A stretch of DNA of 64,000 bases, taken from assembly GCA_051362555.1 (NCBI GenBank), contig CM120641.1, positions 23,070,401 to 23,134,400 on the forward strand, read 5' to 3'. The stretch is from Lingula anatina (Eukaryota; Animalia; Brachiopoda). Numbering within the stretch: the first letter of the stretch is position 1; the number at the start of each line of letters is the position of its first letter. The notes beneath the pieces were generated by a model. It ran no database searches. It was not told where the DNA came from and saw only the letters and a list, made by a program, of their open reading frames with translations. Shown piece by piece: positions 9,601-12,600 of the stretch. A program made the translations under genes and the position numbers.

Positions 9601-12600
9601 TTATACAGAAATATAATTCAGATCTTTGATTATGTATCTGAAAGTTTGATTTTGTCCATTGAAAAGATTGAGTCATTACCATAAGACTCTTCTCCAGTAA
9701 AGATACCTCTGATTCTTCGTAAATATTATAAATTACATGCACCACCAGCCTCAAGTTATTATTACCATTGGATCCTGAATTCCCTTCAAGTCATAATATT
9801 CCTCTTTGGCAATCATGAAAGCAGCCAGGTTGGCAGTATAGCTGGCCAGGAAGACAACAGCAAAAAGTGCCCAGATGTTGGCCATAAAGCGGCTTGACAC
9901 TCCTCTTGGATTGTCGACGTTGACTGCCGCCCCAAACAGCATTGCCCATATCAGCCAAAATGATCGGAATAATGAAAATCTGTGCTCTTAAATAAAAATG
10001 AAAATAAAAATAAATGGCGTTATAGATCATATTATTTCATTATATCAATTTTCTATTCATTAATTAATCTTTTAATTTAATCATTATTTTAATTAGTTTA
10101 AATATCTTCCATAGAACAGATCTATCTATTCTGAATGTCATTCTTTCAGAAGCAACTCAAATAATTCCTCAAGTTTTACAATTAGTTCATAAGAATAATC
10201 ATTACATGTTGTCTAATGCAAAGCTGGCACCCTTTTCTATATGCCAGTCTGACAATTAAACCATGGTCTTTTCTTTTTTTAACAAACTAAGTATCAGAGA
10301 TTTGAAAGTCATTGTGAAAAGGTTTTATTTGGTAAATTTATGACAGTCAGACCATGCACACTGCTTGAATATGAGGTAAAGATTCAATGTTGAAAAGTAT
10401 TTTACAAAAGAATGACAGAAGCATCATATTCACGTCATCTAATATCAATGGCTTATACACCAATTCCCCATTTCACAAAAATTTTCAATAGATGCCCCAT
10501 TTTAGTGCATTACAACTATTTAAAAAGTGAAATAGTCATCAAGTGTTATTTGGGTACCTTGTATTATCTTAATTCTGTCATAATATGGATGCATTTTTCT
10601 TAAGTTATTGTTCTATTAAGGGTATAGAATTATAAATGTTAGTATTGCATCACTTGTTAGGGTTAGCAAATACCCATGCTGTTACAGCCTATTTTGTGAC
10701 ATTATTTTGCACTGCAAAAGCAAGGTCATATAACAATATGTCAGTACATTTGTAAGCTAATTTTATATATTAATGTGGCTTATGTACCAATTATAGATGA
10801 AAGATAGCTTATACTGATATCCAACATGTAGTGGCACTGAGACAGATAGTGTGGACACGGACAATATTAAAACTTACGATGATGTTTCGAATCACTTTTC
10901 CTTCCATGTGACTCATCTGTAAATTTCAGAACTGAAATTAATAATTGTGCCTTTTCTCGATCAACTTCTACATGTACTTATGGTACGCATTGTGTACGCA
11001 CTACATCGTCAAAGCCACAAGAGTTTCAAAACTGTTAACCGTGCACAGGAGACCGAGGTAAACTAGCCAACAGACTTCACTGAGACGGATGTCAAAGCAT
11101 ATGAAAAAGCTCCTACAAAAGTTCAGTGGAGTTCTACTTTCACAAGACTTCAGTTGTAAGTCTCTCTCTCTCTCTCTCTCTCTCTCTCTCTCTCTCTCTC
11201 TCTCTCTGTACTTCATCTATAGCACAAATAGTCACAACAATGATGAGACAGGAAGTAAGATACCCTCCAAAAGTCCCAGAAAGAGATTTAGTGCACTTAG
11301 TGCACAGAGGCAATAGCTATGAGAAGACATTGAGTGTTGATACCATTATGGTTCTCATGCAGTTAGACAGTTGCTAATGGACCCAAGATCACAGATGGGA
11401 CTGAGGTCTAGGAGAGAGTCTACTGGGAGTTTTACCACAGCACCAAGTGACAAGTGATGCCATCAAACACAGTGTATAAATAAATATAAGGATATATATA
11501 TTCTTATGGTACCTTATGATGCTTGTTAGCATGGGCACAGTGGTGAGGCAAACTCAGTCTTTTTTGTGCTTAAAGTGTCAATCAATCCATGTGTCACTTG
11601 TTAATAGCTCATATCATACAAAAGTTTAGATTGTGTAGTTACATTGACTCTATTACTATATTTATATAATCAAGTAAATAGTTTACTGTGATTGATTACA
11701 ATTGCAAATAAAAAACCTGTTAGTAAAGCAAGTAAAACAGAAATGTATGGGTTATATATCAGAACAATAGCACTGTGCACAAATACAAAAACACCCTCGG
11801 CCCAAGCTGTAAATTGGTCACATTTGTACAGTACCTCTTGCAGGCACTTCTCCTTGATTTAAACCTCCAGGGCTTAGCCATTCAAATATGAAGATGGCTG
11901 CCCCAGCCGTATGGACACTAAATACTAGGATAAGACACCAAGCAGGATAATCATATGGTTCTGAAATAATTTAAGAAAGTAGATCATGTGACATTTAGTA
12001 TACATGTGTCAACTGCTGCCAAGGAAACACAAAACATCAACATTTGTGCCCTCTCCTCAGGATGGTTTCAAGGTTGCCATGGATACCTGTGACTGTGGAA
12101 TACAAAGTTATGGGATTGCTGAACTGCACTTTTCAACATTTGTTGTAAAACAAAACTACCAACGACAAATCCAACTAAATTGGTGGATTTTTAATACTTG
12201 ACCAAGTTTTTTGTAATACTAACTCTGTTTTGCTCACTTATCGAAAGCTAAAATTATTTTTTGTTGCTGACAGCAATGATCCACACCTTTGTTTTCCAAC
12301 TGTAAGTCAAAGAAAAAATGAAACATCTGTAAAACAACATCAATGGTGCATATTTTACCTCTTGTGACAGGACGTTTTTGCCTGTTAAAGCCATAGGGAC
12401 TTCCCCATTCAAAGAGAAACACTGAGACAGCTACAACTTGGATAGCTGCGAGTAATATCAGTAGCCATGATTTGATGTCAAACGGCTCTGAAAAGGCAGG
12501 TTCACAGTGAACTTATGTAACTAAATTCTACTTTGAATGTTATTATCACACATACTGCAATCCAATCAACAAAAACATACAGTACATTAATCTATCTAAA

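Follow-up and report, generated by a model that had tools for sequence, protein, structure and literature searches.

A GluN2 gene with two adjacent pre-M1/M1 exons

The window analyzed here, 64,000 nucleotides of the genome of the brachiopod Lingula anatina, carries a gene encoding a subunit of the NMDA class of ionotropic glutamate receptors (iGluRs) (Table 1). Its internal junctions are all AG/GT, with the last acceptor at 7137, and the translation, together with hits to PF10613 and PF00060, shows the typical iGluR architecture with S1, M1 to M3, and M4. Along about 900 aa, the protein shares 39 to 53% identity with proteins named NMDA-2, and its C terminus reads EMETVL, as in aphid GluN2. 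In a quick tree built from 35 rows, from which the swapped exon was left out and which contains no GluN1 or GluN3 outgroup, the gene falls among spiralian GluN2 (SH-aLRT of 99). Its exact place there is not resolved: it stands next to an annelid and two nemerteans, outside the bivalve-gastropod group. For the abalone orthologue, the PDB matches listed were GluN2A to GluN2D in 60 of 60 cases. By sequence, the gene is a spiralian GluN2, a class whose members would form channels with GluN1 that are gated by glutamate and glycine.

Table 1. Position and properties of the GluN2 gene and its exons around M1 in the window
Feature	Position	Strand	Properties	Content
Host GluN2 gene	6678..17840	-	15 constitutive coding exons plus A/B; about 1,100 aa	
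Upstream constitutive exon	13009..13204	-	Pfam PF10613, E 4e-15; RNA reads	End of ligand-binding S1
Exon A	12359..12487	-	129 nt; phase 1/1; AG/GT (acceptor ...ttttcag, donor gtaaaa); open frame	Pre-M1 helix, M1, and M1-M2 loop; variable, ecdysozoan-like copy; Phe at the GluN2A-F553 site
A-B intron	11961..12358	-	398 nt	
Exon B	11835..11960	-	126 nt; phase 1/1; AG/GT (acceptor ...tttcag, donor gtactg); open frame	Second pre-M1/M1 copy; near-invariant spiralian type; Tyr at the F553 site; YDYP.WC and FSVH.G
Candidate optional microexon	10878..10916	-	39 nt; AG and GTAAGT; phase 1/1; frame open	
Downstream constitutive exon	9766..9986	-	Pfam PF00060, E 6e-20; AG/GT	M2 pore loop and M3 (SYTANLAAF)

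The S1 exon is the shared donor for two homologous exons, A and B, which a preliminary description made from the nucleotides alone had proposed as a tandemly duplicated, mutually exclusive pair. The coordinates, AG/GT sites, phases, and peptides given there were reproduced from the sequence, the spacing of the two exons and their place between the S1 and M2-M3 exons are correct, and a recount of the identities again gave 17 in 43 positions, namely, 16 ungapped and the common terminal Arg. Both exons match Pfam Lig_chan (PF00060), A at positions 2 to 34 and B at positions 4 to 33, with E values of 0.00036 and 0.05, scores that lie under the curated cutoff because the exons are short. They are adjacent, homologous, of like length and equal phase, and flanked by canonical sites, which is the anatomy of a mutually exclusive cluster. 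We scanned positions 9987 to 13008 for hydrophobic phase-1/1 exons of 99 to 150 nt between AG and GT and recovered only A, a variant of A with a shorter donor, and B; there is no third copy between the S1 and M2-M3 exons by these settings.

The candidate microexon between B and the M2-M3 exon would insert 13 polar or charged residues into the M1-M2 loop, and a second possible acceptor lies 15 nt upstream of it. Such an insertion is absent from the 105 homologues with a measured M1-M2 loop. The pore loop encoded by exon 9986-9766 reads FGAAV, compared to FNNSV in vertebrate GluN2B; FGAAV is also found in other spiralians and may bear on Mg block. The introns of the gene contain a 23-nt tandem repeat of 5.3 copies (9134-9255) and a (TC)23 microsatellite (11161-11207). 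Gastropods with two or more GluN2 genes, some of them on one scaffold, were also seen (P0020/P0034, P0002/P0047, P0050/P0068, and P0056/P0065), with exon A occurring within the P0034/P0002 paralogue group. One GluN2 per protostome was reported in passages of a 2017 survey (PMC5225553).

Distribution and age of the pair

Using exon B as a query, we found 69 relatives among 73 candidates, with identities of 68 to 83%; those with names come from molluscs, an annelid, nemerteans, and Macrostomum. The three top-scoring records carry an A-like copy ahead of B: a genomic open reading frame (P0001) and the sequences from the snail Batillaria (P0002) and the annelid Paralvinella (P0003). Among the 33 metagenome loci containing B, the loci L001 and L004 show the same A-then-B order with equal phase and AG/GT ends, and in L004 the pair sits between the S1 and M2 exons. 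Orthologues of exon A were recognized in L001, L004, P0001 to P0003, and P0095. With exon A alone as the query, none of 9 candidates from a word-indexed search was a relative, while a profile of four A sequences gave 10 among 457.

A HMMER search with a B profile resulted in 130 matches, with a gap in the scores between 69 and 50 bits. Ten matches checked above the gap were from molluscs and flatworms, and 7 of 10 checked below it were from ecdysozoans, so by these lookups all named carriers of B are spiralians, and ecdysozoans have a single exon that is A-like. In an exon tree over 34 columns, the B exons make up one side of a branch with an SH-aLRT of 99, the A rows are intermixed with the single exons of ecdysozoans, and most remaining forks are unresolved. 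Of the 15 loci in which the interval from S1 to B is complete, 14 showed no exon A. The B peptides of these 14 loci are near-identical, and the loci therefore stand for few independent cases of likely loss.

A recent, lineage-specific duplication is ruled out: A and B have diverged to saturation within the gene, and B groups with the B exons of other phyla. Judged by sequence comparison, a single tandem duplication, no later than the split of molluscs and annelids, likely gave rise to the pair. Exon A would be the older-type copy, drifting or lost, and exon B a spiralian novelty that turned into the conserved default.

Selection on each copy

The preliminary description had named dN/dS as a check on both exons, and between L001 and L004 it is far below 1 for each. 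In this comparison, 2 nonsynonymous and 17 synonymous changes fall in exon A (dN of 0.021, dS of 1.30, and dN/dS of about 0.016), and 0 and 20 in exon B (dN/dS of 0). Between the window and L004, dN is 0.31 for A and 0.14 for B, and dS is saturated or nearly so. These substitution patterns indicate that A and B are each under purifying selection.

When the nine genes with both exons are compared pairwise over 34 aa, the B exons share an identity of 0.87 on average, against 0.43 for the A exons, and the value for B is the higher one in 36 of 36 pairs. Ten B exons have 24 invariant columns out of 41, many of them with small and polar residues. The best 19-residue Kyte-Doolittle value is 1.8 to 2.2 in 14 B exons versus 2.2 to 2.7 in 11 A exons, and the M1 of B is less hydrophobic than that of A in nearly all cases. 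The corresponding copy in oysters, A', shows weak homology to A (hhalign probability of 0.4 at the correct position, with 2 of 500 shuffles equally good), and despite its drift it is still a hydrophobic span of equal length. The overall pattern is that B is fixed and A is free to vary.

This pattern could also be read as a minor, relaxed copy A heading for loss beside a working exon B, with isoforms that are functionally alike. The loss or nondetection of A in nearly all complete intervals and its fast divergence in oysters and abalone would agree with this, as would a classification of 99 long proteins into 79 that are B-only and 7 that are spiralian and A-only, although the searches behind it were seeded with B. 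A relaxed copy, however, does not fit the persistence of A in molluscs, an annelid, and Lingula anatina, its low dN/dS between L001 and L004, or the fact that A is the sole exon with a listed splice junction in this species (see below). We consider it improbable.

Alternative use in isoforms and RNA

RefSeq isoforms, which are predictions, were surveyed in ten protein clusters, with 15 of the 123 members covered in the largest. At least six pairs of A-only and B-only isoforms, identical apart from the A/B exon, were found in at least five mollusc species: Magallana gigas (in two annotation versions), C. angulata, Saccostrea echinata, S. cucullata, and Haliotis rufescens. A and B are joined in at least two Crassostrea gigas RefSeq-type models (P0051 and P0077), which are likewise predictions, and in two genome-project models, those of Batillaria (P0002) and Paralvinella (P0003).

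For Lingula anatina itself, the RNA sample consists of 22 reads from four of nine raw-read runs over positions 11250 to 14300, with joints listed from 3 reads up. The only joint to reach this threshold was 13009 to 12487 (S1 to A), one of those named in the preliminary description, with 4 reads and 3 starts in run X7. In run X1, depths of 54 and 200 nt were recorded in bins with 27 and 99 exonic bases of B and zero in the neighboring bins; a depth of about twice the exonic bases with none beside them fits one spliced read pair spanning exon B. One read of run X7 stops at the acceptor of B, so that in all 3 reads from 2 fragments terminate at the limits of B. No S1-to-B, A-to-M2, or B-to-M2 joint was seen at the 3-read threshold in the 22 reads of the four runs. 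The same holds for the A-to-B joint, but at this depth co-inclusion may have escaped notice. Reads of runs X3 and X4 run across the acceptor of B into the intron, and reads of run X7 run across the donor of A, which means that unspliced RNA or DNA contributes to the signal. Even so, the S1-to-A junction reads show that exon A is used in this species, and the few B-bounded reads point to use of B as well.

Two further features of run X7 were noted. At 12270-12358, it has 178 bases of depth in a bin with only 13 exonic bases, so some molecules continue through the donor of A into the A-B intron, which may reflect slow removal of this intron, nascent RNA, or DNA. It also differs from the window at 13019, 13040, and 13154; all three differences are synonymous and likely allelic.

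We further considered that A might be an ordinary cassette added before B, such that the double-M1 product is nonfunctional and A serves as an off-switch for the subunit. The models with A and B joined in C. gigas, Batillaria, and Paralvinella are what such a cassette would give; both exons keep the frame and hence do not trigger nonsense-mediated decay (NMD), and the S1-to-A joint in the present reads is silent on what comes after A. But A-only isoforms exist in five species, gene models from genome projects can link any exon that keeps the frame, and the EPxD, W, FEW, and SP motifs are under purifying selection, which an off-switch would not need. We regard an off-switch as very improbable.

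The one-of-two splicing put forward in the preliminary description thus agrees with the A-only and B-only RefSeq isoforms of five mollusc species and with the S1-to-A and B-bounded reads, but the two C. gigas models that join A' and B speak against strict exclusivity. In our judgment, splicing of A and B is very probably mostly one of two. That both duplicated exons are functional alternatives, as had also been proposed, is borne out by the mollusc RefSeq isoforms, the reads in this species, and the low dN/dS. We have high confidence that the exon pair is real and conserved and that both of its copies are functional.

Choice between the exons

In the exon model, the reading frame is open in all four products (A, B, both, or neither), so NMD does not enforce a choice. 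The last AG upstream of the acceptor of B lies at -54, with the branch-like motif TACTAAAT inside that zone. Steric clash is ruled out here, given that AGs reach to -54 in an intron of 398 nt (Table 1). The kept frame, the AG at -54, and the 398 nt between the exons confirm the earlier dismissal of frameshift NMD and steric clash as causes of exclusion.

An RNA-structure selector, which the preliminary description had implied as one possibility, found no such confirmation. Folding gave no selector helix: in the window, 0 of 8 region pairs formed a helix better than 20 shuffles, and across three loci 1 of 24 did so, unreplicated. Neither L001 nor the window has a counterpart of this lone pair, which lies between the L004 intron and exon B. 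Inverted repeats in the three loci gave no replicated selector, and 20 intron comparisons among these distant loci gave no conserved block beyond weak U-rich matches. No conserved pairing element of a docking-site/selector system of the Dscam type was found in the three distant loci compared, but competing RNA structures are often not conserved over long distances, according to sections of PMC5740500. The same sections state that most exon clusters in channels lack steric or frame enforcement and that proteins, RNA structure, and folding constraints are thought to be responsible (PMC5740500).

Eight splicing-factor motifs searched in 20 introns gave scattered p values of ≤0.05, none common across loci. 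TGCATG occurs twice in the A-B intron of L004, once in that of L001, and not at all in that of the window. The L004 intron (L004:5392-5998) has, besides the two TGCATG, three GCATG (p of 0.02 to 0.03, uncorrected), and one of these sites is 6 nt after the donor of A. In the window, two acceptor-like motifs (a pyrimidine run plus TACAG) lie at 12300-12330 on the reverse strand, 32 and 59 nt past the donor of A, and are possible decoys; a weak U-rich counterpart is present at another position in the A-B intron of L004.

In the iGluR architecture, a second span would place M2 and S2 on the wrong sides of the membrane. Splicing-factor proteins, not an RNA helix kept by conservation, would set the choice of exon, and the rare product with both exons or neither would be removed because it misfolds. 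Protein regulators combined with the loss of such misfolded products are the most likely explanation.

Predicted effect of the swap

The swapped segment extends from the residue equivalent to GluN2A E551 (about 551 onward) through M1 into the M1-M2 loop. At the F553 site, A has Phe and B has Tyr; GluN2B has EPF and GluN2D has PY. According to portions of PMC7141592, this site is Phe in GluN1, GluN2A, and GluN2B and Tyr in GluN2C and GluN2D, and the residue belongs to an aromatic network with M3 and the M4 of the partner subunit. In the same work, F553Y lowered the open probability by 30% without changing the glutamate EC50 or the time course, and F553A lowered the open probability about 10-fold (PMC7141592). 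With EC50 and time course unchanged in F553Y, the effect from that site alone would be modest.

The preliminary description had contrasted a basic M1-M2 loop in A with a neutral one in B. The contrast holds in the window, with charges of +4 for A and 0 for B, but as a functional distinction it does not carry over: among the nine genes with both exons, the A loop is more basic in only three, equal in one, and less basic in five. The conserved differences between A and B are located in pre-M1 and M1.

The exon swap would exchange the F553-equivalent residue and the packing of the M1 surface on M3 and the partner's M4. It would tune the open probability and the kinetics, with B as the form with the lower open probability. 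Alternatively, A and B could be true alternatives whose swap alters assembly, trafficking, or the contacts of M1 and the M1-M2 loop with lipids or auxiliary subunits, rather than gating. The less hydrophobic M1 of B, with many invariant small or polar residues, is what a fixed binding surface would look like, and F553Y alone has a small effect in the portions of PMC7141592 cited here. On the other hand, the swap includes pre-M1, where single changes shift the open probability up to 10-fold (PMC7141592, same portions), and the analysis identified no partner protein. We think an effect on contacts instead of gating unlikely, if somewhat less so than a relaxed copy A.

We return to the gating reading. 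It is probable, from what the sequences and annotated isoforms indicate, that one old duplication left two selectively kept pre-M1/M1 copies which are spliced one at a time, giving two subunits predicted to differ in gating. One GluN2 gene may thereby supply two channel types. A more specific version is tentative, and we put it at somewhat below even: a splice switch older than the mollusc-annelid split would exchange the pre-M1/M1 module to give NMDA receptors of high and low open probability, with B marking a spiralian-specific membrane contact.

Relation to known exon pairs and significance

The closest known case is the flip/flop pair of the AMPA receptor genes GRIA1 to GRIA4, in which, as in A/B, tandem homologous iGluR exons are spliced one of two and are old and retained; it alters desensitization and TARP modulation (excerpts of PMC13520880 and PMC5740500). 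Flip/flop, however, is located in the rear part of the ligand-binding domain and is of early-vertebrate origin (PMC13520880, in excerpt), whereas A/B belongs to an NMDA-type gene, swaps pre-M1 and a whole membrane span, and is spiralian. That A/B is flip/flop itself is ruled out by its location in pre-M1/M1, which begins at about residue 551 of GluN2A. Vertebrate GluN2A/B and GluN2C/D resemble A and B in having Phe versus Tyr at the F553 site, which is tied to open probability (PMC7141592, in the portions cited). In vertebrates, though, GluN2A to GluN2D are separate genes, while in Lingula anatina the difference would come from one gene by splicing. A and B are otherwise neither 2A-like nor 2C-like, so that the parallel is one at a single site, and oyster A' has no aromatic residue there. 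Mutually exclusive exons in voltage-gated sodium and other channels are similar in that duplicated exons encode one structural element, but they belong to other protein families.

The oyster and abalone RefSeq isoforms (XP_019930458.3/XP_011454502.3 and XP_048248143.1/XP_046372602.1) have the same swap as A/B at the same position, with identical flanks, but they come from automatic annotation only, and oyster A' has diverged much further than the A of the window. No NMDA receptor case of mutually exclusive exons appears in the sections of PMC5740500 cited above, and the words "splic" and "exon" are absent from the main text of PMC6307864. Our search covered mainly titles and abstract openings; no published description of a GluN2 M1 exon pair was found within this range, and a prior mention is possible. 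Passages of PMC5225553 name one Aplysia splice variant, of Grin1, and describe protostomes as low in GluN2 diversity, and an excerpt of a 2026 paper terms invertebrate iGluR splicing unstudied (PMC13520880). Mutually exclusive exons in channels are already known; apparently new is the GluN2 pre-M1/M1 pair, the isoforms of which stand unremarked in RefSeq.

The pre-M1/M1 segment is a gating element and a hotspot of human disease. A and B are natural variants of this gating segment in the same background. Clones and gene models of mollusc and annelid GluN2 may show only one of A and B or combine the two in error. Among NMDA receptors, a conserved swap of pre-M1/M1 exons would be the counterpart of flip/flop, and, if true, the splice switch would be a parallel to the vertebrate split between GluN2A/B and GluN2C/D.
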